Positions 427-28,394 of a stretch of 32,000 nucleotides of DNA are shown here, in pieces. How positions within the stretch are numbered: the first letter of the stretch is position 1; each line of letters starts with the position of its first letter. The notes beneath the pieces are model-generated. The model was not told the DNA's origin. It did not search any database and saw nothing but the letters and a program-made list of their open reading frames with translations. The position numbers and the translations under genes are program-made. The DNA lies in assembly GCA_016205145.1 (NCBI GenBank), contig JACQJH010000001.1:450001-482000 (forward strand), written 5' to 3'. Source of the DNA: Candidatus Iainarchaeum sp. Lineage in GTDB: Archaea; Iainarchaeota; Iainarchaeia; Iainarchaeales; JACQJH01.

Positions 427-480
427 TTATTTGCCAGCCTGGAAAACTTTTGGGAAAAGTTTTATCAAAACTCACGGAAC

Positions 481-8189: not shown

Positions 8190-8246
8190 GCGGCTGCCCG
8201 GAACCGGTTTTAATAACTGCGTTGCGGATTCATTCCGTGGCATAAA

Positions 8247-8717
8247 ATGCGAAAATGGTGGCAAGTGGACAAAAAAATAAAATTCCTGTTGGTTGGGGCG
8301 GGGCTTTCAATTCTGCTTTTCATAATCATGGGAACGCCCACGGCCCTCGTGCCCAACCCATTCATTCACTACAAGAGGATGGTTGCCGCGGCATGGTTGG
8401 ACTATTTTTTTCTCGCCTCAACCTCGATAATGCTTGCGGCATTGATTTCGCTGAAACTGTATTTCAGGTCGGGGCGCGGCCTCGGCGCAAAAGAAATCGG
8501 CGGGGGCGCGCTGGGCTTTCTTGCGTTCAGCTGCCCGATTTGCAATGCTCTTCTCGTGGCTTTGCTCGGCGGCGCGACGATAATGGCGTTCGTGGAGCCG
8601 TTGAGGCCGCTGTTTGGAGTCGTGTCGATTGCGATTTTGGGTTGGCTTATTTATGGCGCGCTGAAATGCGGGGGATGCAATGGCGCCGCAGGCCGGCACG
8701 GCATGAAAATTAATTAA
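8247..8717 (+). CDS. 4-TM membrane protein, CxxC paralog 2 (TM3 SCPICN, C-terminal KCGGCNG)
   Basis: Same architecture as 2990-3517. Cys96/99 lie in TM3 and Cys141/144 at the C-terminus. It starts 57 nt after the MCO stop. Confidence 0.75.
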   Translation: MRKWWQVDKKIKFLLVGAGLSILLFIIMGTPTALVPNPFIHYKRMVAAAWLDYFFLASTSIMLAALISLKLYFRSGRGLGAKEIGGGALGFLAFSCPICNALLVALLGGATIMAFVEPLRPLFGVVSIAILGWLIYGALKCGGCNGAAGRHGMKIN

Positions 8718-8756
8718 TCTGCTTGCATTTACATACAATCTGTTGCGGTGCTTGGA

Positions 8757-9455
8757 ATGGCGTTTCCTTTGAACCCCTGGCTTTTCGGCTCGGCCGCCCT
8801 GCTGTTGTTGTGGCTGGCCATATGGCTTTTCAGGCCCGCTTTGCGCAGGGAAATGCTTTTGGTCAGCCTTTTCACCGCGCCTTTGGGTCTGACGGAACCG
8901 CTTTTTGTGCCCGAATACTGGACTCCGCCTTCGCTGTTCAACCTTGCCGCCACAACGGGCTTTGACATTGAAAGCATAGTCTTCTGCTTTGCCGCCGGGG
9001 GAATAGCGGCGGTCATCTACGAAATCCTGGTGAAATCGAGGCACAGTGAAATGTCCATGAATGAAATGCGTTCTAAACGGCACAGGTTCCACAAAATCGC
9101 GCTCGCCTCTCCCGCAATCGTTTTCGTGCCCCTGTACCTTTTTTCCGGCCTGAACCCGATATATGTTTCAATAATTGCGCTGTTTGCCGGCGCAATGGCG
9201 ACTGTCGTGTGCAGGCCGGATTTGAAGAAACCGGTCTTAACCGGAGGAACAGTATTTTTGCTCATCTATTTCTTTTTCTTCCTGTTTTTGAGCGTGGCAT
9301 TCCCGGATTTTGTGCCGAACGCGTGGAATTTTTCGGCCATCAGCGGCATTCTTGTTTTCGGCGTCCCTTTTGAGGAGCTGCTGTTCGCGCTTTCCTTTGG
9401 AATGGCGTGGGCGGGCCTTTACGAGCATTTTTTCTGGAAAAAACTGGTTCGTTAG
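8757..9455 (+). CDS. polytopic membrane protein, possibly of the lycopene-cyclase-domain (CrtYc/d-like) family
   Basis: About 7 hydrophobic segments, with repeated motifs FDIESIVFCFAAGG and VPFEELLFALSFG that resemble the PxEE(x)LF signature. The functional assignment is weak. GTG 8748 is an alternative start. Confidence 0.5.
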   Translation: MAFPLNPWLFGSAALLLLWLAIWLFRPALRREMLLVSLFTAPLGLTEPLFVPEYWTPPSLFNLAATTGFDIESIVFCFAAGGIAAVIYEILVKSRHSEMSMNEMRSKRHRFHKIALASPAIVFVPLYLFSGLNPIYVSIIALFAGAMATVVCRPDLKKPVLTGGTVFLLIYFFFFLFLSVAFPDFVPNAWNFSAISGILVFGVPFEELLFALSFGMAWAGLYEHFFWKKLVR

Positions 9456-9485
9456 GCCAATCAGGCAACCGGCAAAGGCTTCCGG

Positions 9486-9911
9486 TCAGTGCGCGCCGCC
9501 GCCCTTGAAAGTCCGCGCGCAGTGCCTGCAGCAGAATTTCAGGGTTTTTCCGTTTATTTTTTCCGTGTGGCCGCCTTCATAGACCATGCAGGCGCAGTGC
9601 GCGCACTGCGAAAGCTTCGGTTCCACGGCAAGGTCTATGAGGCCGCCGAACCTGTGCAGCATCGACTTGCAGAACGCCTTGCCTTCCGGCGTCAGAGCGT
9701 AAACCTTTTTTTCCCTCGCGCCCTCTGATTTGACCCGGATGTATTTTGCCTTTTCAAGTTTTGCGAGGAAAGGGTAGATCTGGCCGGGTGAAACCCTGCT
9801 TTCGAGCCTTTCGCTTATCTCCTTTATGAGCTCGTAGCCGTGCCTGGGGCCGTCGCACAGAAGAAGCATGCAATAGAATTTGGCCATGTTTGTGATCCTG
9901 ATTTCTTTCAT
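9486..9911 (-). CDS. PadR-type winged-helix regulator fused to a C-terminal TRASH metal-binding domain
   Basis: The N-terminal half (LLLCDGPRHGYELIKEI...GQIYPFLAKLEKAKYI...YALTPEG) is PadR-like. The C-terminus CAHC-x20-CCRHC fits the TRASH pattern C-x2-C-x19-22-C-x3-C. Confidence 0.85.
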   Translation of the reverse strand: MKEIRITNMAKFYCMLLLCDGPRHGYELIKEISERLESRVSPGQIYPFLAKLEKAKYIRVKSEGAREKKVYALTPEGKAFCKSMLHRFGGLIDLAVEPKLSQCAHCACMVYEGGHTEKINGKTLKFCCRHCARTFKGGGAH

Positions 9912-9952
9912 TGCGGTCAGGCGGATTTATCTGGGAAAACGTTTAAATATTT

Positions 9953-9973
9953 ATATATCTAAATTTGATATAT
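9953..9973. promoter_or_regulatory. palindrome ATATATC-N7-GATATAT in the divergent promoter region
   Basis: Perfect 7-bp inverted repeat embedded in TATA-like sequence. It lies 42-62 nt from the PadR-TRASH ATG and 70-90 nt from ATG 10043. Confidence 0.45.
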
Positions 9974-10042
9974 CTGTTTTCTGGGCATCATTTTTCTGAG
10001 CGTCATTTGGGCTGGCAACAATTTTTTTTGGGGTGGTTTGCA

Positions 10043-10630
10043 ATGGTGGAAAAATCGGGTTTGCTGGCATTGGTTGTATTGGCGGGTTTAATCGCGTTGC
10101 CTGTTGCAATGGCGCAGGGTTCGGATGATTTTGCGCAGGCGAAGGCGCTGATCGACAGGAATGCGTCCTGCGGCAGCCTGAGCAGCGAACAGCTTGAACT
10201 GATCGGCGATTATGTGATGGAGCAGATCCATCCCGGCGAAGCCCACGAATATGTGGAATCGATGATGGGCGGCGAGGGCTCGGATAGCCTGAAACGGGCG
10301 CACATTGCCATGGCTTACAGGTTCTACTGTGCAGGCTTAGGTTCTGGGTTGAACGCAAACAGCCCGTATTATGGCGTAATGGGCGGCTATGGGATGATGG
10401 GTGGCATGATGTACGGCAACTATGGCGGGATGATGGGTTCTGGCAATGCCTATTCCACTTATGGGCTTATGGGATACGGCGGCGGAACCGCAAATTATCC
10501 TGGAATGATGGGCTATAATGCGTCAACCGGCGGCCTTGGCCTGCTTACGCAGGTCTTGTTTGTGGTGGCGCTTGGTCTCGCAGTTCTGTTCCTTGGCATT
10601 AAAGTCTTCGGGCAATTTCAAAAGCGGTGA
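10043..10630 (+). CDS. secreted Met/Gly/Tyr-rich protein with a C-terminal TM anchor (putative Cu(I)-binding)
   Basis: Signal-like N-terminus LLALVVLAGLIALPVAMAQG. A helical domain carries HPGEAHEYVESMMGGEG. A low-complexity stretch reads YYGVMGGYGMMGGMMYGNYGGMMGSG...PGMMGY. The tail is hydrophobic. Confidence 0.7.
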   Translation: MVEKSGLLALVVLAGLIALPVAMAQGSDDFAQAKALIDRNASCGSLSSEQLELIGDYVMEQIHPGEAHEYVESMMGGEGSDSLKRAHIAMAYRFYCAGLGSGLNANSPYYGVMGGYGMMGGMMYGNYGGMMGSGNAYSTYGLMGYGGGTANYPGMMGYNASTGGLGLLTQVLFVVALGLAVLFLGIKVFGQFQKR

Positions 10631-10680
10631 TTGAGGATTTGGGGTTGAATGTCCTGCGGGTTGTATGCCGGCCCGGAACA

Positions 10681-10727
10681 AAAGGTTTCAGCAATGCCTA
10701 TTTATGGTTTCAGCAGGAATATTTGCA
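10681..10727 (+). promoter_or_regulatory. shared promoter/operator module, copy B (AAGGTTTCAGC-N11-ATGGTTTCAGC-N7-TTTGCAT)
   Basis: It is colinear with 4365-4411. The first spacer contains a TATA-like TATTTAT. It lies 70-116 nt upstream of ATG 10797, the first gene of the cop operon. Confidence 0.55.
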
Positions 10728-10796
10728 TAGTTGTGTTTTTTTGCATCCGGTCTTTTTTATGAATTTTATGGGTGAAGGCTCTAAAGTGGTGGTCAG

Positions 10797-11228
10797 ATGA
10801 ATGAGGTTAAAGTCCAGCGTGTTTTCCTGTTGCTTGTGTTAGGCGCCCTGGTCGTGTTCGGCGGAATGGTTCTGTTTTGGTTTGGCGCTAATGCAGCGCC
10901 CGCCAGATCGGCATCGGTAAATAATCAGGGTATTGTTGCCGGAGGGAACGGCCAGGCACAGGACATTTACATCAGGGCGCTTTCAAGCGGAACCTATGAC
11001 AAAAGCGAGGTCACGGTAAAGAAAGGCGTGCCGGTCAGACTGCATTTTTCCGCTGACCCTGGCGCGGGCTGCGGAAGGTATCTGGTGCTATACGGCCTGA
11101 ACGTCAATGCGCTTTCCAAGAACGGCGAAGAAGCGGTTGTCGACTTCACGCCGCAACAGGAAGGCAGCTTTGAATACAATTGCGGTATGAGAATGTTCAA
11201 ACCCGGAACATTGAAGGTTTTGGCATGA
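10797..11228 (+). CDS. membrane-anchored cupredoxin-like domain protein
   Basis: One TM followed by VTVKKGVPVRLHFSADPGAGCGRYLV...VDFTPQQEGSFEYNCGMRMFKPGTLKV. This is the typical cupredoxin_1-type C...CGM.M pattern seen in cop operons. Confidence 0.75.
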   Translation: MNEVKVQRVFLLLVLGALVVFGGMVLFWFGANAAPARSASVNNQGIVAGGNGQAQDIYIRALSSGTYDKSEVTVKKGVPVRLHFSADPGAGCGRYLVLYGLNVNALSKNGEEAVVDFTPQQEGSFEYNCGMRMFKPGTLKVLA

Positions 11229-11701
11229 GCAGGCTTGAAGCTTTGGCCTTGGTGTTGTCGGAGCGCAGTCAGCTCGCAATATTTCTTGCGGCGTTTGCCG
11301 TGCTTTTGCCTTTGCTGGCAGTCAGCTCGGCAATAATTTCGCCGGTGGGTTTTGCGTTCAATCCTTTGGCTGAACCGCTTGGAATCGCTTTGACAATCGT
11401 CATTGCAATCCTGATGGGCCTGAACCTGACGGTCCTGTTGCATGCCCACGCACGCAATGCAAATGCAAAAAAGGGGACTGTCCTGTTCGGCGGCCTGGCG
11501 GCAACGTTTGCCACTGCCTGCCCTGTTTGCCCGCCGACATGGATTGTCCTGCTCGGCTTCGGCTCGGCCGCGGGCTTTCTTTCTGGAACCGGGATTTTCA
11601 TTGCAATTGGCAGCATAGTCTTGCTTTCATTGGCTCTTTACAATTCTTTGGGTTGCGCAGACGGAAACTGCGGGGTGGACAAGAATGGAAAAAATGATTA
11701 A
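11225..11701 (+). CDS. 4-TM membrane protein, CxxC paralog 3 (TM3 ACPVCP, C-terminal GCADGNCG)
   Basis: ATG 11225 overlaps the cupredoxin stop (ATGA). Cys99/102 lie in TM3 and Cys144/149 at the C-terminus. Same architecture as the other two paralogs. Confidence 0.75.
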   Translation: MSRLEALALVLSERSQLAIFLAAFAVLLPLLAVSSAIISPVGFAFNPLAEPLGIALTIVIAILMGLNLTVLLHAHARNANAKKGTVLFGGLAATFATACPVCPPTWIVLLGFGSAAGFLSGTGIFIAIGSIVLLSLALYNSLGCADGNCGVDKNGKND

Positions 11702-11888
11702 AGTGAAAGGCATGCATTGTAAGTCATGCGAAATCCTTGTCGCGGACTCCGTGTCTGAAATCAGCGGCGTGGAAAGCGTCAAGGCGGACAGCAGGAAGGG
11801 AACTGTTGTGGTGAATGTCCGGGATGCCGGGATTCTCGGCAGGGTGAAAGCCGCGATTGAAAAGGAAGGCTACAAGGTGGAAAACTGA
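11685..11888 (+). CDS. copZ: CopZ-like heavy-metal-associated (HMA) copper chaperone
   Basis: 67 aa with a GMHCKSC motif and a ferredoxin-like HMA length. GGGGTGGA lies 5 nt upstream. Confidence 0.88.
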   Translation: MEKMIKVKGMHCKSCEILVADSVSEISGVESVKADSRKGTVVVNVRDAGILGRVKAAIEKEGYKVEN

Positions 11889-12808
11889 TGGAATTCGAAC
11901 TTGAACTTGGCGGAATGTCCTGCGGCTCATGCGAGCGCATAATCGAAAAGGTTGCCGAGAAAGCCGGCGCGGAAGTCAAGGAAATCGACTCGCGCAAAGG
12001 CAGGGTCACAATCGTTTCCGAGGAATCCAAAATAGCCGGAATAAGGGAAGAGCTTGCCAAGCGCGGCTTTGCCGAAAAGGGCAGCAGGGAAGACGTGGGC
12101 AGGGGCGACCTGAAAAACGTTGTTGGCTACATTTTGGCAGTGCTGTCAATCCAGCCGCACGTCGAAGAGGAAGCCAGGCTCGTCAACCACGCCATTGCGT
12201 CCGCGATTATTTTGGCTGGGCTGAACATTCTGGCTTACCTGTTTTTTGTGCAGGGCCTGGAGAACGGCGAAAAGTACCTTCCATTCCTTGCATTGGCGAT
12301 TGTTGCGTCAATAACATCCGTTTTCGCGTACCTTCACGCCAAATGCTACCGTAAAATCATGTCCTGCCAGAACGGCATGATGGTCGGAATGACCATGGGC
12401 ATGGTTCCGGGCTTCATGGTCGGCGCAATCATTGCCGCGACAAACGGAATGTTTCTTGGCAGCGTGGCCGGAATTCTGACCGGCGCATGGCTTGGCCTGA
12501 AGAGCGGAAAATGCTGCGGCGTAATGGGCGCAATGGAAGGAGTCATGGCCGGCCTGATGTCCGGTTTGATGGGGCCGATGACAGTGATCATGACCCTCAA
12601 CGACAACATGCTCGTTCTGCTTTACCTGATTTTCGGAATCTCTGTTTTTTTGCTCGGCGGCCTGAGCTACATGCTGTACCGCGAGGAAGGCGAAACCCCG
12701 GTTGCGAACACAAAGCTGCCGGAATTCATTGTTCTCGGCATTGCGTTCAATCTTGTGCTGCTGGCGATAATGCTTTTTGCGGTTAAGGGGCCATTGAGGT
12801 TCGTGTGA
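11888..12808 (+). CDS. HMA domain fused to a Met/Gly/Cys-rich ~7-TM membrane domain (unknown family)
   Basis: The N-terminal 62 aa form an HMA domain with GMSCGSC. After a charged linker come TM segments including [18 protein letters not shown] and [30 protein letters not shown] overlap joins it to copZ. Confidence 0.75.
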
Positions 12809-12818
12809 GGGCGATGGC

Positions 12819-15275
12819 ATGAAAAAAATCACAGTCGGCATTAAAGGCATGCATTGCGCTTCCTGCGCCACGATAATCGAGCGTCGCCTCAAAAAAGTTG
12901 AAGGCGTGAAGGATGTCTCTGTCAGCGTCGCGGCAAACAGGGCGGCGATCGAATTTGATGAGGGCATTGCGGGCATTGAACAGTTTGGAAAGGCAGTGGA
13001 AAGTGCAGGGTACGAACTCGTCCAGCCGCAGGGGCAGGATTCCGGCGATGCGAAGATAACAATGCATGTAAAGGGCATGGATTCGCCGCATTGTGCGGGC
13101 ATTGTCGGGAATGCGCTCAAGGGAACCGCTGGAGTGAAAAAATTCGACCTCAGCTTCCAGAATGCCTCGGCAATGGTTGAATTCGATGCCTCCATCACCG
13201 GCTTTGATAAAATAAAGGCTTCGATTGCAAGGGCAGGCTATGATGCGGAACTGCTTGTCGGGGAGGAAACAGTGGACCAGGAGAAGGCCGCACGCGATAA
13301 AGAAATCGCGGAATTGAAGCGCAGGCTCGTTTTTTCGGCATTGCTGACCGTGCCGGTTGTCCTGCTTGCATTGCCGGAAATGCTGAAAACTGTTATGGCA
13401 TTCGAGTACCCGCAGTTCATAATGCAGAACATGGCTGCATTGCAATTGCTGTTTTCAACGCCGGTGATGTACCTTAACAGGGACATGTTTGTGAGGGGCT
13501 TCAGGGGGCTGTTGAATAACATGCCGGGCATGGACAGCCTTGTCGCTTTGGGCGTCGGGACAACCTATGCTTACAGCGCAATCGTGGCCCTGCGCATCAT
13601 TGGCGGAGTCATGTATTTTGAAACCGCTGCTTTGCTTCTCACGTTCATATTGCTTGGCAGGTACCTTGAGGCGATTGCCAAAGGAAAGACTTCCGAGGCA
13701 ATCAAGCGCCTTGTAGGGCTTGCGCCGAAAACCGCAATCGTGGTCAGGGCAGGAAAAGAGGTTGAAATTCCGATCAAGGAAGTTGTTGTCGGGGACATTG
13801 TCATTGTGAAGCCGGGCAGCAAGATTCCGGTTGACGGCGTCATAGTCGAAGGCGAAAGCAGCATTGACGAGAGCATGATTACAGGGGAGAGCATGCCCGT
13901 GCACAAGCGAAAAAATGACATTGTGATCGGCGGGACAATCAACGGCAATGGCTCTTTCAGGTTCAGGGCGACAAAAATCGGCAAGGACACAATGCTTGCG
14001 CAGATAATCCGTTTGGTGGAGGACGCGCAGGCAAGCAAGGCGCCGATCCAGAAGCTTGCAGACACTGTCGCAGGCTATTTTGTGCACGCAGTAATAGTGC
14101 TTGCATTGCTTGCCTTCGCTTACTGGTATTTCGTGGCAGGCCAGCCGTTTCTTTTCGCGCTCACAATCCTTGTTTCAACGCTTGTGATTTCCTGTCCTTG
14201 CGCAATGGGCCTTGCAACCCCGACAGCGGTCATGATTGGAACCGGCAAGGGCGCCGAGAACGGCGTGCTCATAAAAAACGCGGAGAGCCTTGAAATCCTG
14301 CATCAGGCCAAAACCTTTGTGTTCGACAAGACCGGCACAATCACCATGGGAAAGGCGTCGGTAACGGAAATCGTTCCGGTCGGAATCAAGGCAGCCGACC
14401 TTCTTTGCCTTGCGGCTTCCGCGGAAAAGAATTCCGAGCATCATTTAGCGCAGGCAATCGTGAAAAAGGCGAAGGAATCGAGGCTGAAAATTGCAGAACC
14501 GAAATCTTTCAAGGCGATTCCGGGGCATGGCGTCGAGGCAAAAGTCGGGGCGAAGAATGTTCTCATCGGAACTGTTGTCCTGATGAAAAAAAGCGGGGTC
14601 CGGATCGGAAACGATTTGGTTGGCAGGATGCAGTCGCTTGAAGAGCAGGGAAAAAGCGTTGTCCTTGTTTCGTCGGACGGAAAGCTTGTGGGAATGGTTG
14701 CGATTGCCGACACCATAAAAGAGCATGCTGCCGAGGCTGTAAGGCAATTGCAGGCAATGGGTTATGAAACCGTCATGATAACCGGCGACAATTCCCGCAC
14801 TGCAAACGCGATTGCAAAGCAGGCAGGCATTTCAAGGGTGCTGGCGCAGGTGCTTCCGTCGGACAAGGCCGCGGAAGTCAAGAAATTGCAGTTGAACGGA
14901 AGAAAGGTTGCCTTTGTCGGCGACGGCATAAACGATGCCCCGGCCTTGGCGCAGGCCGACATTGGAATCGCGATTGGCAGCGGCACCGACGTTGCGATTG
15001 AAAGCGGCGGAATAGTTTTGGTGAAAAGCGATTTGCGCGACATTGTGACGGCGGTAAAGCTTAGCAAATACACTCTCGGCAAAATAAAGCAGAATCTGTT
15101 CTGGGCTTTCGGCTACAATGCGGTCGGCATTCCGCTCGCGGCAGGCGCATTCTATCCTTTCACCGGCTGGCTTTTGTCGCCGGTCATAGCCGGAGCGGCA
15201 ATGGCTTTCAGCTCGGTAAGCGTTGTTTCGAACAGCCTGCTCATGCGCGGATGGAAACCGGATAAAAAGGTTTGA
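12819..15275 (+). CDS. copA: Cu(I)-translocating P1B-type ATPase
   Basis: 818 aa. HMA1 has GMHCASC. HMA2 is degenerate (GMDSPHCAG). It carries the TM CPC motif ([11 protein letters not shown]), DKTGT, MITGDN and GDGINDAP. Confidence 0.95.
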
Positions 15276-16281: not shown

Positions 16282-17364
16282 TCACGCTATTGCCTTCATT
16301 GTGGCGAGAATCGAGTCGATTGTGTCCAGCAGTTCTTTCAGTTGTTCTTCCGTGGTGTCGCCCATGTGCGCTATCCTGAAAGTCTGCTGCTTGAGCTTGC
16401 TGTAACCGTTTGAAATCACATAGCCTTTTTTGCCGAGCTCTTCGTTCAGCTTGTCGATGTCGTATCCTTTCGTGTTTTTGATGCAGCTTAATGCGATTGC
16501 CTCGAAGCCCTTTTCCGGGAACAGTTCAAAGCCCTGTTCCTTGACCCAGGAGTGGCAGATGTTCCTCAGCTTTTCGTGCCTTGCAAACCTCTGTTCGAGG
16601 CCTTCCGCGAGCATGTTGTCAAGCTGTTTGTCCAGGCCGAACAATTGCGGTATTGCGGGCGTGCTCGGCGTATTGTTTTTCTGGTGGTATTTGTCCATTT
16701 CAATAAGGTCAAAATAATAGCCCCTGTTTTTCACTTCTTTCGCCTTGTCCAGCGCCTTCTGGCTCACGGATGCGATTGCCAGGCCGGGCGGCAAGGCAAA
16801 TGCCTTCTGCACTCCGGCAAGGCAGATGTCGATGCCGAAAGCGTCTGTGTCAATCGGCATTGCCGTCAGGCTTGAAACAGTGTCGACGCAGAAAATTGTT
16901 TCAGGATAGTCTTTCATCACTTTTGCGATTTGTTCAAGCGGGTTCAATACGCCGGTGGATGTTTCGCTGTGCACCAGCATTACAGATTCGTATTTTCCGG
17001 TTTCAAGCTTTTCCTTCAATGGCTCGGCCTTGTTTGCGAGGCCCCATTCCACGCTTAAAGCGTCGGCCTGCTTTCCGTTTGCGAGGCTGAGCCTGTGCCA
17101 CAGTTCGGAGAAGTTTCCGCATGTCATGTGCAGGCATTTTTCGTTTGCCGTGTTGCGCGAACAGGCTTCGAATGCGCCTGTGGAGGAGGACGTGAACATG
17201 AAGACCCTGTTCTTGGTGAACATTGCCTTCTGGATTTTCGGCTGGATTGAAGCGTACAGGCTTGCGAATTCCCTGCTCCTGTGCCCGATCATGGGCCTGC
17301 CTATCTCATGCCTGATTTCCTCGCTGACTTCCGTCGGACCCGGAATGAAAAGCCTTTTGTGCAC
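16282..17364 (-). CDS. class-V PLP aminotransferase (phosphoserine / serine-pyruvate aminotransferase-like)
   Basis: Contains LFIPGPTEV and the GVQKAFALPPGL PLP-lysine motif. I prefer GTG 17364 because AGGGGGGA lies 7 nt upstream. The track's TTG 17424 is an alternative start. Confidence 0.8.
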   Translation of the reverse strand: MHKRLFIPGPTEVSEEIRHEIGRPMIGHRSREFASLYASIQPKIQKAMFTKNRVFMFTSSSTGAFEACSRNTANEKCLHMTCGNFSELWHRLSLANGKQADALSVEWGLANKAEPLKEKLETGKYESVMLVHSETSTGVLNPLEQIAKVMKDYPETIFCVDTVSSLTAMPIDTDAFGIDICLAGVQKAFALPPGLAIASVSQKALDKAKEVKNRGYYFDLIEMDKYHQKNNTPSTPAIPQLFGLDKQLDNMLAEGLEQRFARHEKLRNICHSWVKEQGFELFPEKGFEAIALSCIKNTKGYDIDKLNEELGKKGYVISNGYSKLKQQTFRIAHMGDTTEEQLKELLDTIDSILATMKAIA

Positions 17365-17447
17365 TTCAAAATCCCCCCTAATTTCTGTTATATGCCTGAT
17401 AAAAGACTGATATTTAGCCGACAACTTTTTTTAAAGCGTGCGTTCGG

Positions 17448-17476
17448 AGCCGGTTTCGTCCGGCTGGTTCGATGAC
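17448..17476 (+). repeat. inverted copy of the 5' part of the tRNA-Gly intron (hairpin AGCCGG-TTTCGT-CCGGCT plus GGTTCGA)
   Basis: 17449-17472 matches the reverse complement of 625-648 at 23 of 24 nt. The single mismatch is compensated by the base 5' of the hairpin (C-G becomes A-T). It lies in a 184-nt gap between two minus-strand genes. Confidence 0.7.
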
Positions 17477-17548
17477 GGGTATCTCGCGTTGCTCGATACC
17501 CATCTGCACTCAGCATTAAATGTTTCGGAGGCGTGCGACGGAGCCAGG

Positions 17549-18523
17549 TTATTCCTTGATTTCAGCGGCATCGATCTGCCCGTCGCCGTCCAAATCCAGG
17601 CCTTCGACAACTTTTGCGTGAATCCTTTCATTGAAAAGATTTGGCTTGGCAATCTTTTCAACGCTTTTTGCCATTGCGACAACCGCGGCCTTGGTGCCAG
17701 CATTGCGGTTTCCGGCTATGAGCAGAATGCGCTTGTCGCCGAAGAAAGGGTGTGGCGCCTTGACGATTATGCCTGTTGCGTCCTCGGTGTAGGTTTTTTC
17801 CGAAGCCGAGCTTTCAATGCCCCATGGGCCATTGCTTTGCACGAATTTTACGGGCAGCCTGTCGTTTATTTCCTGGCAGATCTTGTTTGTGATCGGCCCG
17901 CCGACAATGATTGCGTTGCTGTCAAGCTTTTCCAGTGACTCGACCATTGTGTCCAATAGCACGAAAGGGTATTTTATTTTGGAGGCATAACTGCCGAGGA
18001 TTGCTGCCAGTTCGACTGCCAGGTGGGAGTCCCTTGCCCTCGCCTTGAGCGGGCCGTGCGGATCGGGCGAGCCGATGATGATTTTGGCTGAAAAAACGCC
18101 CTTATGTATAAACGGTTCGAGGAATTCTGCAATCTCTTTAGGCACTTCCTTTTCCCTGCCTTCGATGGCCTGCTTTTCCCCGCCGGCATCCGGTGTAACG
18201 ATTGACACCGCGCCGAAGTCCGCGGAAAAGAATTTTGCCAGGGCGCCCTGTTTTTCCTGCGTCTTCTGCACCGACACAAGTCCGGATTTTTTCAGCTGGT
18301 TGATGTAATAGTATGCTTTCTGCTCCGGCATGCCCAGCTTTTTCGCCAGCTCGGCAGGATAAGCCGGCTTTTTCACCAGCTCAGAGTAAATTTTCCATGC
18401 GCTATCGCTGGCAAGCGGCCTTATTTCGCTTGCCTTGTGGGCAATTTTTGTGGCGATTCGCCTCCGGACCGCGTTCCTTTCAAATTCGACAAAATCCGCC
18501 AAAAACACCACCACTTTTAACAT
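17549..18523 (-). CDS. winged-HTH protein with an uncharacterised alpha/beta C-terminal domain and a terminal EF-hand-type loop
   Basis: The wHTH reads AYPAELAKKLGMPEQKAYYYINQLKKSGLV. C-terminal domain motifs include IIVGGPITN and ILLIAGNRNAGTKAA. The last 15 aa contain DLDGDGQIDAAE, which fits DxDxDGxIxxxE. Confidence 0.7.
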   Translation of the reverse strand: MLKVVVFLADFVEFERNAVRRRIATKIAHKASEIRPLASDSAWKIYSELVKKPAYPAELAKKLGMPEQKAYYYINQLKKSGLVSVQKTQEKQGALAKFFSADFGAVSIVTPDAGGEKQAIEGREKEVPKEIAEFLEPFIHKGVFSAKIIIGSPDPHGPLKARARDSHLAVELAAILGSYASKIKYPFVLLDTMVESLEKLDSNAIIVGGPITNKICQEINDRLPVKFVQSNGPWGIESSASEKTYTEDATGIIVKAPHPFFGDKRILLIAGNRNAGTKAAVVAMAKSVEKIAKPNLFNERIHAKVVEGLDLDGDGQIDAAEIKE

Positions 18524-22526: not shown

Positions 22527-22871
22527 TCATCTTGTCTTGTATCCGAATTTCCGGCTGTATTTTTTGTGGTCGTACCACTCCAAAATGATGCTTACAACAA
22601 TTATTTCGTCCCTTGCCACTGAATAAATCAGCTGCCATCCTTTCGGCAGATTGTATTTCCAGCAGTTGTCTATTCCGTATTTCCTGAAATATTCCTTCGG
22701 AACCTGTTTTTTCGGCACCTGTATTCCTGAAAACGCGTTTTCCCGGATGTTTTCAAATGCCTTTTCCAAAAATCCGCTGAGCGCAAGGTCTTCAGTTGTC
22801 GAATGCCCCAATTCTTGGAATGCTATTTTTATTTTTTCATCCGCAAACCTGATTTTTGACGCAAGTTTCAT
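22527..22871 (-). CDS. RelE/ParE-superfamily-like toxin (archaeal type)
   Basis: 114 aa. The C-terminal pattern YGIDNCWKYNLPKGWQLIYSV...IIVVSIILEWYDHKKY resembles archaeal RelE-like toxins. An ATGA overlap joins it to the upstream small gene. Confidence 0.55.
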   Translation of the reverse strand: MKLASKIRFADEKIKIAFQELGHSTTEDLALSGFLEKAFENIRENAFSGIQVPKKQVPKEYFRKYGIDNCWKYNLPKGWQLIYSVARDEIIVVSIILEWYDHKKYSRKFGYKTR

Positions 22872-23164
22872 TTTTTGTTTCCCCAGCCAAGGCTTTCCAT
22901 GGCGAGGTATTTTCTGGCAAGCGCCGGATTATAAATCCAGGCTATTTTTCGTTCCTTGTCGAGGGCAATCTTTCCCGAGTCCAGAAGATAGCCGATGGTG
23001 GTGCAGTATGTCTGGTACATCATTTTTTTCGGCAGTTTTTCCCACAGCATTCTTTTCCTGAATTCGCCTGAATGCGCTTTTATGACTTTTTCGACCATTA
23101 AGACCGTGTCCAATCGGGGATAGCGCGTGATTTGAACGGTTTCCGAAGCCACAAAAAGCACCAA
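22868..23164 (-). CDS. putative antitoxin / small winged-helix-like partner
   Basis: 98 aa, 4-nt overlap with the toxin gene, and a palindromic operator immediately upstream. TTG 23164 or GTG 23161 is the start. Confidence 0.5.
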   Translation of the reverse strand: MVLFVASETVQITRYPRLDTVLMVEKVIKAHSGEFRKRMLWEKLPKKMMYQTYCTTIGYLLDSGKIALDKERKIAWIYNPALARKYLAMESLGWGNKK

Positions 23165-23278: not shown

Positions 23279-26200
23279 TCAGTAGATTATTTCCTTGCCT
23301 TTCATCGCGTCCAGGAAAATCGTGCGGTTCTTTCCGTCATAGCTTTTCAGCCTTCCCTCGTATGCCGGCATGTAAACGGTTTCGATTTTTTTGACGACGA
23401 TCTTGCTCCACAGCCTTTTCAACGATTCCGCCGCCTGTTCCTTTGAAACGCGCGGGGCCTCGATTGCCACGGATTCCTGCTGTTTCAATGGCAGGCCGTG
23501 CAGCGAATTCATTATGGGGTGCAGCGGGTTTGCGGGCAAATCAACGCTCTCGTTTAGCCTGAAGGAAGTTTCATTGTTCGCGGTTTCAATTTTGATTATG
23601 TTCTTGTCCGCGAGGCTTTTCAGCAGCCTCCTGAGCCTGGCCTCGTCCATGCCGGTTTTCTGCATCAATGCTTCCAGGCCGGCCTTATCCTTTTTGAGAG
23701 CGTTGAAGAGAATCGCCTCGTTTTCGTTCAGCTGCGAAAATTCCTTGAATCCGCGTGACTCCAAAAACTCGTTTCCGGCATAGTGCAGGAATTCGCCGCT
23801 CAGGGAATTGACGTATGCCTCGCCGACATTGAAAATTTCCTTGGAGCCGAAATAGTTGAATTTGAACGCGAAAACGGGAATGAATTTGAGGTAAACGCTT
23901 TCCAGCATCTCCTCCTTTCCGAAAAATCCCAAAAACTTTTTTTGCCGCATGGCATTGAACGCTTTTCTCGCGGCTTCCTCATTGACCTGCACCGGAAACG
24001 CGAGCAGTTCCGGCGGTTCCTGCACTCCGGCTGCGGTTTCAGGTTTCGGCGCCTCTTCCTTCAAAACCTTCTTTTCGATTTCCTCCGCCTTTCTTGTCGC
24101 CTCTTCGAGCTTTTTCTCCATTTCCTCTTCGTAGCCGGGCACGCTCACGGTCTGCTTTTCGGAGTCAAATTCTATTCCCTTGCGGTCGAGCTGTTCCATT
24201 ATGTCCGATGGTTCAATGTTCGCCTTGAACTTGTTGTTGACAGTGTTTATGATCTGGCGGATTTTTTCAAGCTCAATCACGCCTTCCTTTTCAATTTTGG
24301 CGAGGCACATTTCCAATGCAAGCTTTTTCGCCTTCTCCGGATCCAGGTCCTTCGACAGTTCTGCGGTTTCAGCTTCCCTGCCTTCGTGCTGTGACATTCT
24401 CGGCCTGACCCTCATTACGAACGCCCTGCTTGTCTCCTCGCGCCTGTCGCCGGTAAGCGCGGTTCCAACGGGAAGCGTTTTGATGAACGTGGGCTTCCTG
24501 AATTTTTTTGGAATCAGGGTGGGAGTCCTCTTGAAAACGGATTTTATGTCGTCGTCGAAGACAAGCTTGTGCGTCATTATTATGTCAAGCTGTGACAGCA
24601 CGTGCGAGTCGATTGCAGACGGCTGTTGTGTTGCGAAGACAAGCGAGCAGCCGGGCTGGCGGCCCTGCTTCACATATTCTATGAGCGAAGTTGTCGCAGG
24701 CGTCTTGACGTTTCCGCTCGGAATGAGCGTATGCGCCTCGTCTATGAACAGCCATGTCGGCGGAATCTCAAGCTCCATCATTTCATCCGCATCAACAGTC
24801 TTGTGCCTGCTAGCCGCCTCACGCCTTGTGGTTTTTTTGCGCGCTGCAAGAATGCGCCTGCCAAGAATGCCTATGACCAGCGCGGAAACATTGTCCTCAA
24901 GGAAAGAGGTGTCGATGATTGTGAGCTGGTTTTCCATGCTCAGTTCGCCCAGAGGTGTGCCCTTATCGGAGAAAACGCCCCAGTTTTTTGCGGCGTCAAA
25001 CCTTGAAACCAGCGCCCTGATAGAATCGGGCTTGTAGCCCTTGTCCGAGGAATGCAGTTCCTTGTCGTTTTCAAGGCAGTTTATCAGGTCGTCAAGCGTG
25101 TAATTGCCTTTTTTTCCCGCAATTTTCGGTCCTTCCTTCTGCTCGTAGCCGCTTCTCACCTTTGAAATGACCTTTTCTATGAGCAGGCCGCTCGGCGAAA
25201 ACCTTTCAATGCCGAATGTGAGGCACCAGTCGTCGGTTGAAAGCAATGAGGCGTGCATGGAAAACGTCGCGTCAAACGTTCCGCCCGGCACCTGGTCCTT
25301 GACTCCCGCAGGAATGAATACCTTGAGGTTGTCCAAACCCTGCGGTGTCAGATCCCATTTTGCAAGCATGCCAATTTCCCTTTCATCCTTGTTCGGGAAC
25401 CTCATCGACCAGAACACGCCGATGGGGTCTATCACGATTATGCCGACGTTCTTGTTTTTGTGCGCCAGCTCTTCCGCGAGAACGCCCAAAACGTAAGACT
25501 TTCCGGATCCGCGGGCACCGTTCACGAAAATGACGTGCGGGTTGAGGCTGTCCACCAATACATTGAAATCGTTGAGTTCGGAGTCCTGCACTTTTCCGAC
25601 AAACAGGCCGGCTTCCTCGCCGTACTTTTCAAACAACGACTTTTTCCTGCCGATGAACGCAATCTTTTTTTTCTCGTCAGACAATAAGCTGAGTTCGAAC
25701 CTGCCGCCTTCCTCGTCTCTCTCCTTCTCTTTCTCGGTTTTCGCCTCGACCGGGTTTGGCTTGTGCTGGTCGGAATAAATGTCCGCTTCGCGGATGCCGA
25801 CTTCCTTGTCGAACGGCAGGAGTTCATCCTTCTGCGCGTAAATGGATGCCTTCTCCAGAATGACGTCCTTTATCTGCTGCTTGTCCTCTTCCTCCAAGGC
25901 GATTTGTTCAAGCTCGTCGTTCATTTCAAGGTCGTCAGCTGCCTGCTTTTTGGCCTTGACTCCCGCCGCATCTAAATCCGTTTCCGCGCCTTTTCCCGCC
26001 CTGCCTTCGCCGGCAATGCCATTCCCGCTTTCCTTTGCCGCGGCGTTTTGGGCGGGTTTTTGTTTCGCCTGCCTTTTCCTTTTCACGCGCTTTTCATCGG
26101 GCGCCGCGCTTTCAATAACGGTTTCGTTTTCGAACCCGGCTTTTTCGGCCGGAACGCCTTTTCCTTTTTCCGCTGTTTCCGGCGCGTTTTCTTCTGTTAT

Positions 26201-26404
26201 GTTTTCGCCTTCTTCGCCCGCGCTTTTCGCCTTTTTTTCGGCTTTTTCCTTCAGTTCAATGGTCTTTTTCTTCCTTGCCTCGCGCGCCGCCTTGCGCTCG
26301 TTGCTTTCGCCCAAGACCTCGTCGAAAATGTCCTTGTCGTCCTCGACAAAAGAGGTCTCAATGACCTTCTCGTCATCGCTTTCGCTGGCTTCGGCTTCAG
26401 GCAT
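23279..26404 (-). CDS. 1041-aa FtsK/HerA-superfamily (DUF87-like) P-loop ATPase with an E/K-rich N-terminal disordered region and a C-terminal wHTH-containing extension
   Basis: Walker A VIFVNGARGSGKSY, Walker B WLFIDEAHTLIP, and SLVFATQQPSAIDSHVLSQLD plus VRPRMSQHEG typical of HerA-like ATPases. Residues 1-250 are low-complexity E/K/A. The C-terminus carries a wHTH-like stretch GLEALMQKTGMDEARLRRLLKSLADKNII. Confidence 0.8.
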   Translation of the reverse strand: MPEAEASESDDEKVIETSFVEDDKDIFDEVLGESNERKAAREARKKKTIELKEKAEKKAKSAGEEGENITEENAPETAEKGKGVPAEKAGFENETVIESAAPDEKRVKRKRQAKQKPAQNAAAKESGNGIAGEGRAGKGAETDLDAAGVKAKKQAADDLEMNDELEQIALEEEDKQQIKDVILEKASIYAQKDELLPFDKEVGIREADIYSDQHKPNPVEAKTEKEKERDEEGGRFELSLLSDEKKKIAFIGRKKSLFEKYGEEAGLFVGKVQDSELNDFNVLVDSLNPHVIFVNGARGSGKSYVLGVLAEELAHKNKNVGIIVIDPIGVFWSMRFPNKDEREIGMLAKWDLTPQGLDNLKVFIPAGVKDQVPGGTFDATFSMHASLLSTDDWCLTFGIERFSPSGLLIEKVISKVRSGYEQKEGPKIAGKKGNYTLDDLINCLENDKELHSSDKGYKPDSIRALVSRFDAAKNWGVFSDKGTPLGELSMENQLTIIDTSFLEDNVSALVIGILGRRILAARKKTTRREAASRHKTVDADEMMELEIPPTWLFIDEAHTLIPSGNVKTPATTSLIEYVKQGRQPGCSLVFATQQPSAIDSHVLSQLDIIMTHKLVFDDDIKSVFKRTPTLIPKKFRKPTFIKTLPVGTALTGDRREETSRAFVMRVRPRMSQHEGREAETAELSKDLDPEKAKKLALEMCLAKIEKEGVIELEKIRQIINTVNNKFKANIEPSDIMEQLDRKGIEFDSEKQTVSVPGYEEEMEKKLEEATRKAEEIEKKVLKEEAPKPETAAGVQEPPELLAFPVQVNEEAARKAFNAMRQKKFLGFFGKEEMLESVYLKFIPVFAFKFNYFGSKEIFNVGEAYVNSLSGEFLHYAGNEFLESRGFKEFSQLNENEAILFNALKKDKAGLEALMQKTGMDEARLRRLLKSLADKNIIKIETANNETSFRLNESVDLPANPLHPIMNSLHGLPLKQQESVAIEAPRVSKEQAAESLKRLWSKIVVKKIETVYMPAYEGRLKSYDGKNRTIFLDAMKGKEIIY

Positions 26405-26516
26405 GGAAAAACCAAGCTATATTGTGTGTTTTCATATATTTATGTTTTCTCTGCCGCGGCAAGAATTCTTAAATATTAGTTAAGGTTTTAGTAGGTGGGG
26501 TTGTCAAGGTAATTGA

Positions 26517-28394
26517 ATGTCCGCGTTTTCTTCTGATGAAACGGGCCAAGTCCCGGTAGCCTTGAAATTGCTCGCCGTGCTTGCCATCATCGCGTTCGTG
26601 CTTGCCCTTGTTTCATTGGGCCGGAACGGGCAGGCAAACCTTGCGGGCCGGTTTGCCGGAGCGCAAGCCGATTTTGGCGGAACATGCCTGTTCGGGGATT
26701 TTTTCTGCTTTTCCGGATCAGGCGGGGCGCAGGATTCATTCGAAGGGGATTCGGCTGTTTCCGGTTCAGGTTTCGATTATGCAAATGAGCCGGGCATGCC
26801 GGAAGCCGGCGGCGGTTTTTATGGCGGCTATGATTCCGGCGCGGCGCCGGAAGATTTTGGCGCCGGCCCGGAAACGGGTTCGGACCCTGATTATGGCGGC
26901 CAAAGAGGCGCGCCTTCCGGAAGCGGACTGCCGGAAATTTACGGTTCGGTCCAGCCGGCCGGCAGTTTTGGTGGCGTGAACGCCGGAAAAAGCGTTCTTG
27001 ACAGGGAAAGGCCGCCCGTCAGGATGCCAAAAAACCTGCCCCAGTCATCCGAAAAATCCGGTCCGAAAGCTGTTGCGGCCTCTTTTGAAAAGTATTCCTC
27101 GGACTATCCGCCAGAATGCAAAGAGCATTGCCCGTCGGTCACGGTTTTCTGTTTGCCGGAAGGCCAACTTGCGGATGAATGCGGTGAAGGCGCCACTGCC
27201 TGTGCGGATGAGGCTTCCTGTGAAATCAGCCTGCTTGATTCGGCCTGCGGGTCTGCGGGAATAAGCTCTGGAACATATCCTGCCGGTGAAATCGAGGATA
27301 TTTTGAACGATGCCAAGGAAAAGTCCGCGCCAGGGCCAGATGAGGCGGAGGACATTTGCACGCTGGAACACGAATTCAGGCACATCTGCGACCCTGATGA
27401 CAGGCCGCCCGGTTCCCGCCAGCAATGCACCGAAGTTTATGCCGAAGTCTACGAGGACAAGTGCATGAACGACTTTGCCGAGGCGAACTGCGGCGAAAAC
27501 CAGAATTGGACCGATGAGCAGTGCGGCGACCTTTGCGGCAGAATAGAGTACGGCAATTATGTGCGCAAGTGGGATGACTGCATGTGCCAGAATGCGGTTT
27601 CGGCAGAGGGCAAGTACAGCACCGGTTCAACCGGCTCATCCGACTGCTGTTCTTGCATAAGCCAGTGCACGGCCTATGGCGATAATATGGCGATGCCGCA
27701 GGCATGCATTGACAAGGGCTTTGTCAACCAGAAGGACGCCCAAAGCGCGTGCGCCGGCATTTCAAAAGCGGGAAGCGGCCACGGCTGCGACTATTGGAGC
27801 AGTGACGAGCACGACGAAGCCCAGATTTTCGGCCAGTGCGGCGGCCCCGGCATCTTTCTCGGCTGCTGTTCCGGTTACCCTTCCGGGCAAAACCCGTGGC
27901 CGGGAAACAAATGCGAAAGCTGTGACGCGCTTTTGGCATTGCAGGTTCCTGTCGGCGACGACGGAAAAACAGACTATGCCCTGCTTAAAACGCAGAGGCT
28001 TGAGGCGGTTGCAAAAGCCTGCAATGGCGCTCCCGCCAATTTCGATTCCGAGTTCAAAGACGGTTCCGATGGGCAGATATTGGAAGTTTGCGTGGTCTGC
28101 AACGACCCGTGCCGGCCCTGCTATCAGCAGGCGGGCGGAACAACATCTTCATGTTTTCCGAAAGGGCCTGCAGGCACTTGCGCCCCTGAAAAGGATGATG
28201 CCGCGCTTTTGGGCTTGATCAAAAACATTGCAAAGGGCAGCGGAGTCTGCGCAAATCCTTTGACGGCTTATATGACAAGCATGCAGGCCGGCCCGTACTG
28301 CGGCCAGGCGTGCTGTGCCGACTATAGCTGCCCACTCCCAGAATATGGCAACACCACTCCAGGCATTGCCGGATGCGTGCTCTGCGATAGTTAA
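26517..28394 (+). CDS. N-terminally anchored, extremely Cys-rich (44 Cys) surface protein
   Basis: A TM at residues ~14-34 is followed by a G/S/D/Y-rich linker, then a ~430-aa region with 42 Cys (CC, CxC, CxxC and CxxxC spacings). GGTGGGG lies upstream of the ATG. It is divergent from the HerA-like gene. Confidence 0.75.
   Translation: MSAFSSDETGQVPVALKLLAVLAIIAFVLALVSLGRNGQANLAGRFAGAQADFGGTCLFGDFFCFSGSGGAQDSFEGDSAVSGSGFDYANEPGMPEAGGGFYGGYDSGAAPEDFGAGPETGSDPDYGGQRGAPSGSGLPEIYGSVQPAGSFGGVNAGKSVLDRERPPVRMPKNLPQSSEKSGPKAVAASFEKYSSDYPPECKEHCPSVTVFCLPEGQLADECGEGATACADEASCEISLLDSACGSAGISSGTYPAGEIEDILNDAKEKSAPGPDEAEDICTLEHEFRHICDPDDRPPGSRQQCTEVYAEVYEDKCMNDFAEANCGENQNWTDEQCGDLCGRIEYGNYVRKWDDCMCQNAVSAEGKYSTGSTGSSDCCSCISQCTAYGDNMAMPQACIDKGFVNQKDAQSACAGISKAGSGHGCDYWSSDEHDEAQIFGQCGGPGIFLGCCSGYPSGQNPWPGNKCESCDALLALQVPVGDDGKTDYALLKTQRLEAVAKACNGAPANFDSEFKDGSDGQILEVCVVCNDPCRPCYQQAGGTTSSCFPKGPAGTCAPEKDDAALLGLIKNIAKGSGVCANPLTAYMTSMQAGPYCGQACCADYSCPLPEYGNTTPGIAGCVLCDS

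Follow-up and report, generated by a model that had tools for sequence, protein, structure and literature searches.

A tRNA-Gly(CCC) intron as an apparent member of a low-copy family of mosaic hairpin repeats in a DPANN archaeon

The stretch of DNA analysed here (the window) comprises 32,000 nt of Candidatus Iainarchaeum sp. (contig JACQJH010000001.1, positions 450,001 to 482,000). The contig measures 612,963 bp and belongs to a metagenome-assembled genome. At ∼17.4 kb in the window a spacer between two protein genes carries, on the + strand, a hairpin element whose counterpart lies 16.8 kb away on the − strand, in the intron of a tRNA-Gly(CCC) gene. From comparison of the sequences, 17448–17548 (+) appears to be a non-coding repeat unit of ∼100 nt that is a paralogue of the 109-nt intron. 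It is rather probable that the two belong to a low-copy, lineage-restricted family of intron-like mosaic hairpin repeats, which is turned over and homogenized at the level of DNA and is tolerated in the anticodon loop via splicing. Copies come and go between strains at orthologous sites, one module takes the place of another at a given site, and within one genome the intron and an intergenic copy have exchanged sequence. An earlier note on this DNA had described the two sites as inverted, covarying copies of one hairpin, to be explained as a free-standing small RNA, a footprint of intron mobility or a shared protein-binding RNA module. That account finds partial support, but a repeat family of which the intron is a part describes the data better.

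The host, present in the communities sampled in SRR12113383–5, is a mesophilic groundwater archaeon of a DPANN lineage resembling Diapherotrites/Iainarchaeota. Homologues of the TrmB/S-layer-like protein encoded beside the spacer are assigned in their source records to Candidatus Diapherotrites, Woesearchaeota, Aenigmarchaeota and further DPANN archaea. The window was compared with loci of the same organism and its relatives. L010 is from the same organism, lies ∼9 kb to the left of the tRNA-Gly gene and sits at a contig end; the sampled sequence of this organism amounts to 44.6 kb and holds three family copies. L009 (ERZ4903072) and L017 (ERZ978281) come from strains whose M42 peptidase is ≥90% identical to that of the window, and L018 (ERZ4903055) belongs to the same strain group. 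The closest relative, with a TrmB-like protein 93% identical to that of the window, is represented by L005 (ERZ4903072) and independently by L022 (ERZ28564302). L020 (ERZ27293400) and L021 are from the next relative beyond it, and L007 (ERZ27293400) and L008 from a more distant one (M42 peptidase 69% identical).

The two copies in the window are related through a match of 23 in 24 nucleotides between 17449–17472 (+) (GCCGGTTTCGTCCGGCTGGTTCGA) and 625–648 (−) (GCCGGTTTCGTCCGGCGGGTTCGA), as the earlier note reported. With the intron placed at 541–649, the second of these corresponds to intron nucleotides 2–25. Within the window no further match occurs at up to three mismatches, and none of 100 shuffled sequences gave one, so that the similarity is indeed not random. 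In a local alignment the direct similarity between the two loci ends with these 24 nt. An assembly artefact is excluded because an independent Logan assembly carries the same sequence (128/128 identical). The parts of the spacer element and its flank are as follows.

17448–17465, + strand: hairpin A, intergenic copy (AGCCGG TTTCGT CCGGCT), the 5′ module of the spacer element.
17466–17476, + strand: truncated linker, GGTTCGATGAC, compared with the family consensus GGTTCGAAACCAAGG.
17477–17501, + strand: hairpin H2 (GGGTATC TC GC GTT GC TC GATACCC).
17502–17548, + strand: tail, which includes the right direct repeat GCGTGCGACGGAGCCAGG (17531–17548) and ends at the stop codon of the upstream gene (17549–17551).
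17425–17447, − strand: flank outside the repeat, with a TATA-like box and the upstream bases of the aminotransferase gene, ..CGAACGCACGC TTTAAAAAAAG.

The second hairpin (GGGTATC..GATACCC at 17477–17501), the imperfect direct repeat (17436–17453 and 17531–17548) and the 184-nt gap between two − strand genes, from the stop codon at 17549–17551 to the GTG start at 17364, are all as previously described. The gap is bounded by a TrmB/S-layer-like gene (17549–18523, −) and a class-V aminotransferase gene (16282–17364, −, GTG start), and the left direct repeat lies mostly within the flank. The tail of the element is orthologous to that of the L005 element (AGCAT.ATTAAA..TTCGG), and its end resembles the 3′ end of the intron, CGTGCGGAACAAGG.

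The tRNA locus is made up as follows.

506–685, − strand: tRNA-Gly(CCC) gene, with 5′ exon 650–685, intron 541–649 and 3′ exon 506–540.
541–649, − strand: bulge–helix–bulge intron of 109 nt at the canonical 37/38 position, consisting of hairpin A, linker, H1, a third hairpin and a tail.
632–649, − strand: hairpin A, intron copy (CGCCGG TTTCGT CCGGCG).
595–618, − strand: hairpin H1, intron copy, GGCGTATTGC TTTT GCAATACGCC, a perfect 10-bp stem preceded by the linker GGTTCGAAACCAA and followed by GAGTAA.
481–504, − strand: hairpin directly after the 3′ end of the tRNA, AACCCGTTGC GCAA GCAACGGGTT, a perfect 10 bp.

The tRNA at 506–685 (−) scores 43.5 bits with Rfam (gathering score 29) and matches the model end to end (1–71), with a long insertion in the anticodon loop; ARAGORN calls no tRNA in the window and misses this one. 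Joining of the exons as TTCCCA·A gives a 71-nt tRNA-Gly(CCC). At the borders of the intron UGACC pairs with GGUCA, followed by the bulge CA·A, the pairing of UUCC with GGAA, and the bulge CA·C, that is, two 3-nt bulges around a 4-bp helix. A fold constrained to contain this motif has a free energy of −76.6 kcal/mol compared with −80.0 kcal/mol for the minimum free energy fold, a cost of 3.4 kcal/mol. Its inner helix is weak (2 bp, a 1-nt bulge and 3 bp), and hairpin A forms at the very start of the intron. The sequence of 541–649 is therefore that expected of a canonical bulge–helix–bulge tRNA intron, and its splicing is predicted.

The similarity extends to a family of such units. Each is built from a short GC hairpin, the linker GGTTCGAAACCAAGG, a hairpin of 7–10 bp with variable sequence, and a tail. 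The GC hairpin is of type A (GCCGGTTTCGTCCGGC) or type A′ (GCCGTCATCGCCCGGC), which are identical at 12 of 16 positions, and the longer hairpin is of type H1 (10 bp with a 3–4-nt loop) or type H2 (7 bp around CTCGCNTTGCTCGA). These modules (A or A′, linker, H1 or H2) are variously combined in elements E1, E3 and E4, in the trailer of the L017 tRNA and in L005. At least eight further copies or fragments occur beyond the pair in the window, in this organism and close relatives, all in spacers or in the intron and both sense and antisense to the neighbouring genes. Similarity among members spans 60–105 nt (z = 8–17). A covariance model (R1) of six copies was applied unfiltered to 77 kb. It recovers all six, and matches the window at 586–649 (−) in the intron (89.8 bits) and at 17448–17510 (+) in the spacer, the sole two full copies there. 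Short-word BLAST of the spacer against all fetched loci located the 18-mer AGCCGGTTTCGTCCGGCT at the following positions.

L010:14–31: 18/18; same organism, ∼9 kb left of the tRNA, at the contig end.
L009:3590–3607: 18/18; strain with M42 peptidase ≥90% identical.
L017:1661–1678: 18/18; strain with M42 peptidase ≥90% identical.
L009:1369–1386: 16/18; same strain group.
L018: 15/17 over the BLAST span; same strain group.

Model R1 recovers every one of these as well. The family sequences recur in independent assemblies (the window and L001; L005 and L022; L009, L017 and L018). Three metagenome contigs (L010, L007 and L017) end inside copies, which fits the behaviour of repeats. Exact-pattern scans, to which diverged copies are invisible, were made of GTDB representative genomes, JGI metagenomes and IMG/VR; the module patterns of the family are AGCCGGTTTCGTCCGGCT, GCCGTCATCGCCCGG, GGTYCGRAACYAAGG and CTCGCNTTGCTCGA. 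The pattern CCGGTTTCGTCCGGNNGGTTCGA has no match in GTDB genomes or in IMG/VR, and a single match in the JGI metagenomes (L004) that lies in an unrelated context with no other family module. For SCGGCKGGTYCGRAACCAAGGC there are six matches in GTDB genomes, all in high-GC bacterial contigs and mostly coding. The two matches to the 18-mer in IMG/VR, about the number expected by chance, are lone GC hairpins before T-runs in AT-rich phage contigs, and the matches of the linker pattern there fall mostly in one conserved phage coding region, so no viral link was found in IMG/VR. Among the six GTDB matches to SCGGCKGGTYCGRAACCAAGGC, L015 had looked promising but is bacterial, with 67% GC. Since the matches outside the relatives were at chance level or unrelated, the family appears to be confined to one DPANN lineage.

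The intron as a whole, rather than its first hairpin, is the unit that recurs. When the spacer element of L005 is read on the strand equivalent to the + strand of the window, it is identical to intron nucleotides 1–105 at 71 of 105 positions (68%) without gaps (z = 16.8 compared with shuffled sequences). The L005/L022 element begins 0–2 nt from the equivalent of the 5′ splice site (CGCCGTCATCG..) and runs colinear with the intron to 4 nt before its 3′ end. It occupies the spacer orthologous to that of the window: the flank CGAACGCACGC TTTAAAAAAAG as far as the GTG start is 100% identical in the window, L005 and L022, while the adjoining element has been replaced, with modules A′ and H1 in L005/L022 and A and H2 in the window. 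The same spacer in L020/L021 is T-rich and contains no element. From the identical flank, the orthologous tails and the differing modules, an intron-like element would have been present in this spacer before the window and L005 lineages split, its inner modules being later replaced in one of them.

Other sites are filled in some strains and empty in others. Element E1 (∼155 nt) is present in the M42–DsbA spacer of L009, L017 and L018, and absent from the window and L010. E4, a composite of ∼150 nt, follows the gene for a 188-aa protein in L009 where the window and L019 have a spacer of 10–13 nt; the window reads GCCAATCC where L009 has GCGCCATCGCC. E4 is in turn colinear with the element found immediately after the 3′ end of the tRNA in L017 (z = 14.1). 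The length of the intron also varies, from 44 nt in L007/L008 (L007:100–214) to 109 nt in the window; in L017 (L017:1–165), where the contig ends inside the intron, it is probably ∼162 nt if the missing 5′ part matches the window. The 44-nt intron keeps the hairpin GCCGGTTTCATCCGG with one change in the loop, preceded by the related hairpin CGCCGTCATCGCCCGACG, and thus retains modules A′ and A. The position directly after the tRNA, occupied by the 10-bp hairpin in the window, holds a hairpin of H2 type in L007 and a composite element in L017.

Exchange between intron and spacer is seen in L017. Its intron and E1 flank the M42 gene in opposite orientation and share a 53-nt double palindrome within H1 that is identical at 53 of 53 positions. 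This insert is found at L017:10–62, L017:1588–1640, L009:1296–1348 and L018:1316–1368, and is absent from the window. It consists of two perfect palindromes, CATGGCAAAATCG/CGATTTTGCCATG and CCGGAATC/GATTCCGG, and may be a separate, smaller palindromic insert. Its complete identity therefore indicates exchange of sequence between an intron and an intergenic copy within one genome. By comparison with 430–843 of the window, the segment with the tRNA and trailer has the reverse orientation with respect to the M42 gene in L017 (1–447) and L018 (1–175). Next to CCTATAAAAGCTTTTCTGG the junction continues differently in each of three strains, with unrelated AT-rich sequence in L009. The region beside the tRNA gene looks like a rearrangement hotspot.

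Two further features of the tRNA surroundings were observed. After the trailer hairpin there is an AT-rich near-palindrome, TTTTGATAAAACTTTTCCCAAAAGTTTTCC (window 432–468 (−); L007:30–66, read on the minus strand; L017:310–345), which the window, L007 and L017 all retain despite differences in the preceding hairpin modules, and which is likely to be the terminator region of the tRNA. On the minus strand of L007:1–100, ∼82 nt downstream of the tRNA gene, there is a second copy of the final 13 nt of the tRNA, CCCGGCGGGCGCA, followed by an A′-type module, ACCGTCATCGCCCGG, at the end of the contig; an element integrating at the tRNA gene could have left such a scar.

In the six-copy alignment 87% of the cells of hairpin A and H1 are paired, compared with 24–45% when the partners are slid. 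Six pairs have changed on both sides, five of them among the 10 of H1. The inner 17 nt of H2 are identical at 16 positions between the window and the hairpin after the L007 tRNA, which lies on the opposite strand relative to the tRNA, and the L017 trailer carries a looser hairpin of this type. The outer stems of H2 differ in the three copies (GGGTATC in the window, GCCCATC in L007 and GAGGGGC in L017) yet each remains complementary. The earlier note had named a repeat without structural covariation as a finding that would refute its reading. Half of this applies: the sequence is a dispersed repeat, but it is present at low copy number and its long hairpin covaries. The other helices of the minimum free energy fold of the intron, apart from A/A′ and H1, are not kept in the full-length L005 paralogue on inspection.

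The claim of a compensatory change at the closing base pair of hairpin A requires qualification. The pair is indeed C–G in the intron and A–T in the spacer (17448/17465). Yet A–T is the signature of the whole AGCCGG..CCGGCT subfamily (L010:14–31, L009:3590, L017:1661 and E1 of L009/L018), and the outer two pairs of hairpin A are unpaired (..CCGGAG) in the L007 intron and the L017 trailer. For these reasons the difference reads as one variant shared by a subfamily rather than as repeated compensation. All 139 of the 139 listed stem pairs are Watson–Crick with no G–T, a count that is suggestive since the stems had been defined by complementarity. It suggests that the stems fit palindromes at the level of DNA, or template switches in a single step, better than selection on one RNA strand.

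The favoured explanation is that of a repeat family maintained at the level of DNA. Copies would spread by insertion into spacers, be removed by deletion, and be homogenized by gene conversion with one another. The 23/24 identity in the window would then reflect recent copying or gene conversion and not a common function under selection. The copy in the anticodon loop would persist because its flanks form the bulge–helix–bulge motif, whereby the splicing endonuclease could remove it from the pre-tRNA. The spacer copies, if transcribed in either direction, would give at most a 3′-end hairpin on the neighbouring transcript. Intron mobility comes closest to this among the three explanations offered earlier; the link to the intron stands, while the hairpin is now just the 5′ module of a unit of ∼100 nt. 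A bolder form, in which the intron and the spacer copies are one mobile DNA element, such that a non-autonomous repeat lands in an anticodon loop and becomes a spliceable intron, or an intron escapes into spacers, is doubtful though worth entertaining.

A number of observations weigh against the favoured explanation. No transposase, integrase or reverse transcriptase is found among the proteins of the window. The 5′ module (A or A′) lacks an inverted 3′ counterpart in the L005 element, E1 and E4, so that there are no terminal inverted repeats in these, and the bases preceding the 5′ border (TCGG, AAAA, GAAT, ATTA and CCCA) share nothing that could be a common target. A flanking direct repeat (imperfect, 18 nt) occurs at the spacer copy of the window, and none was seen where filled and empty sites of E1 and E4 are compared. 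Certain of the empty sites may be deletions and not sites that were never occupied. The ∼10 copies and fragments seen all lie within ∼20 kb of the tRNA-Gly gene, which is the region sampled. The pairing kept in H1 and the inner part of H2 could equally be explained by selection on RNA. Lastly, descent may have run either from intron to spacers or from repeat to intron.

Selection on RNA is the basis of an alternative in which the copies constitute a family of small structured RNAs, one hosted by the intron and freed by splicing, the others transcribed from their own promoters, with a common protein binding the hairpin. The double changes in five of 10 pairs of H1, and the 16/17 identity of the inner H2 (window and L007) within outer stems that remain complementary in the window, L007 and L017, are what such a family would show. 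Excised archaeal tRNA introns are stable and possibly circular, as this one would be, and an AT-rich TATA-like box closely precedes the spacer copy of the window (17427–17436) and the copy in L010. However, the only + strand box is placed 12–22 nt before the hairpin, and because of this a start ∼25 nt downstream would fall inside the hairpin itself. The orientation of the copies is mixed, and they come and go between near-identical strains. H1 is split by the 53-nt insertion in the L017 intron and E1, and the intron helices beyond A/A′ and H1 are lost in the L005 element. There is no Rfam family at threshold; no RTGATGA is found on either strand of the intron or of 17425–17560, where one CTGA occurs on the − strand of the spacer, so there are no C/D boxes. 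With the empty L020/L021 spacer these points leave the free-standing small RNA of the earlier note unsupported, and the RNA family as a whole is unlikely. Movement through an RNA intermediate is quite improbable. The excised intron would be reverse-spliced or reverse-transcribed and then fixed in DNA, leaving copies in spacers. This would account for the near coincidence of the L005/L022 element with the 5′ splice site and its colinearity to 4 nt before the 3′ end, and for the start of every element with the first module of the intron; in Thermoproteales, archaeal tRNA introns are inferred to have transposed between tRNA genes (PMC4090602). Yet the window contains no reverse transcriptase, the copies at 17.4 kb and in the M42–DsbA spacer are antisense to both flanking genes, and the 3′ borders do not match the splice site. 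No bulge–helix–bulge could be drawn at the borders of these two copies; on inspection, a 4-bp helix between two bulges is missing from the flanks of the copy at 17.4 kb (GCGTGCGTTCGG· and ·TTATTCC). The composites (E4 of L009 and the L017 trailer) are not simple copies of an intron.

Hairpin A could instead be the core site of a site-specific recombinase, with inverted arms of 6 bp around an asymmetric 6-bp spacer; recombination between the pair in the window could then invert 16.8 kb and split the tRNA gene. The AGCCGG-TTTCGT-CCGGCT architecture suits such a site, L017/L018 differ from the window in the orientation of the tRNA segment with respect to the M42 gene, the CCTATAAAAGCTTTTCTGG junction has its three continuations, and archaeal tRNA genes are known hotspots of rearrangement (PMC3218864). 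Set against this, 6-bp arms are short for a site of this kind, the window has no recombinase gene and an intact tRNA gene, and the one inversion junction that is visible is not at a copy of hairpin A. The linker, H1/H2 and tail would be left unexplained, and this alternative is very improbable. Chance similarity or an assembly artefact is hardly credible. GC-rich hairpins do arise easily: the exact 18-mer is found twice in IMG/VR, about the chance number, in terminator-like contexts, and a 21-base version of the pattern matched one unrelated metagenome contig. None of 100 shuffles matched the 24-mer, however, the similarity within the family covers 60–105 nt at z = 8–17, and the same sequences occur in independent assemblies, by which this alternative is already refuted.

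Three simpler proposals were rejected. The inverted copies are not the ends of a 16.8-kb transposon, as the tRNA gene runs unbroken through its copy. Nor is the spacer copy a tRNA half or pseudo-tRNA, having no cloverleaf or exon-like flank; ARAGORN and Rfam find no tRNA at 17350–17620. The upstream gene is unlikely to exert antisense control of the pre-tRNA through its 3′ untranslated region, since the orthologous L005 element is merely 68% identical to the intron.

Among known systems the closest on the side of the intron is in Thermoproteales, where transposition of bulge–helix–bulge introns between tRNA genes has been inferred, by a mechanism that is unknown (Fujishima et al. 2010; PMC4090602). 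As there, a tRNA intron has close paralogues in the same genome, its length and content differ between relatives, and the mechanism is thought to act on DNA. Here, in contrast, the paralogues lie in spacers of protein genes without a bulge–helix–bulge at their borders, and the host is a mesophilic DPANN archaeon and not a crenarchaeon. The copy at 17.4 kb, having neither a tRNA nor a bulge–helix–bulge at its site, does not qualify as a transposed tRNA intron. By analogy the spacer family would work most like the mosaics of bacterial repetitive extragenic palindromic (REP) sequences and bacterial interspersed mosaic elements (BIME), with which it shares the arrangement of palindromes and linker. 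Both are short GC-rich extragenic palindromes joined by linkers into mosaic units, mostly just after stop codons, variable between strains and capable of forming hairpins in transcripts of either direction. REP/BIME-like repeats number tens to hundreds per genome, with hundreds for REP sequences, and are associated with a RAYT or IS200/IS605-type transposase. The present family differs in its apparently low copy number (three in 44.6 kb), its archaeal host, the absence of a RAYT-type transposase from the window, and the identity of one copy as a tRNA intron.

Small non-coding structured insertion units of 100–170 nt likewise show insertion polymorphism in spacers and nested insertions. Unlike these, the family has no terminal inverted repeats, by which it also fails as a miniature inverted-repeat transposable element, and no consistent target-site duplication, and no parent insertion sequence was identified. 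In Haloferax and other Euryarchaeota the tRNA-Trp intron contains a box C/D guide RNA. That is also a long archaeal tRNA intron with a discrete structured module, but here neither C/D boxes nor guide complementarity was found. Split and permuted tRNA genes occur in Nanoarchaeum and Thermoproteales, and in archaea tRNA genes are known hotspots of rearrangement (PMC3218864). Rearrangement at or near a tRNA gene is common to both cases, and inverted intron-like copies could in principle separate tRNA halves; here tRNA-Gly is contiguous and no tRNA half lies beside the spacer copy. A full-text search of the literature found no intron-like repeats or intron paralogues in ordinary gene spacers and no tRNA introns for this phylum, an absence that is not proof of novelty.

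The gain and movement of archaeal tRNA introns is an unsettled matter: the only basis for inferring transposition has been the similarity of introns between different tRNA genes, and its vehicle has never been identified. In the present case an intron at the canonical position would be, along nearly its whole length, a paralogue of spacer repeats. The variation among the strains (intron length, filled and empty sites, a shared nested insertion and an inverted tRNA segment) is sufficient to test the seeding of introns by repeats and the rearrangement of tRNA genes. The similarity hints that tRNA introns and small mobile repeats share an origin. If the intron and spacer copies were one mobile element, this would provide a concrete source of archaeal tRNA introns that were gained late, and tRNA genes of DPANN archaea could become inverted, split or permuted through recombination between inverted copies. 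If they are just a low-copy palindromic repeat there is still a caution, that short and apparently covarying matches to introns can be copies of a repeat and not RNA modules. Interest would rise if the family also supplies other tRNA introns, or if its inverted copies drive rearrangement of tRNA genes.

Some other features of the window deserve mention. A motif upstream of the tRNA (AAAAAATTGTCGG, 745–757 (−)) is identical at 12 of 13 positions to one upstream of the aminotransferase gene (AAAAAGTTGTCGG, 17411–17423 (−)). Each adjoins a TTTAAAA-type box, and the motif may be a lineage-specific promoter element. An Rfam scan of 17350–17620 gave nothing at threshold, the nearest being RT-13 (RF03017; 14.2 bits compared with 69.1, E = 4.1) and sul1 (14 compared with 36, E = 3.3); the RT-13 match rests on the conserved gene flank GCGUGCGUUCGG and not on the repeat. 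Perfect hairpins of a wider set number only a handful in the window, most of them at the tRNA locus. One of 11 bp at 2906–2933, GGGTATTTGGG CTGAAA CCCAAATACCC, lies partly across the end of the DsbA-like gene; GACGGGTAT is common to this hairpin and the start of H2 (17474–17482), and the hairpin is otherwise unrelated to the repeat family.

Between the two copies lies a copper-handling cluster (6465–15275) encoding a multicopper oxidase, cupredoxin-like and HMA-domain proteins, a PadR/TRASH regulator and an 818-aa P-type ATPase, with thiol-redox genes (DsbA-like, AhpC/TSA-like and DsbD-like) located upstream of the cluster. At 23279–28394 the gene for a 1041-aa HerA-like ATPase is divergent from that for a 625-aa protein without a Pfam match, and a pair of small genes with a faint match to ParE toxin (22527–23164) adjoins this region. 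The HerA-like and ParE-like genes could be defence or toxin–antitoxin modules.

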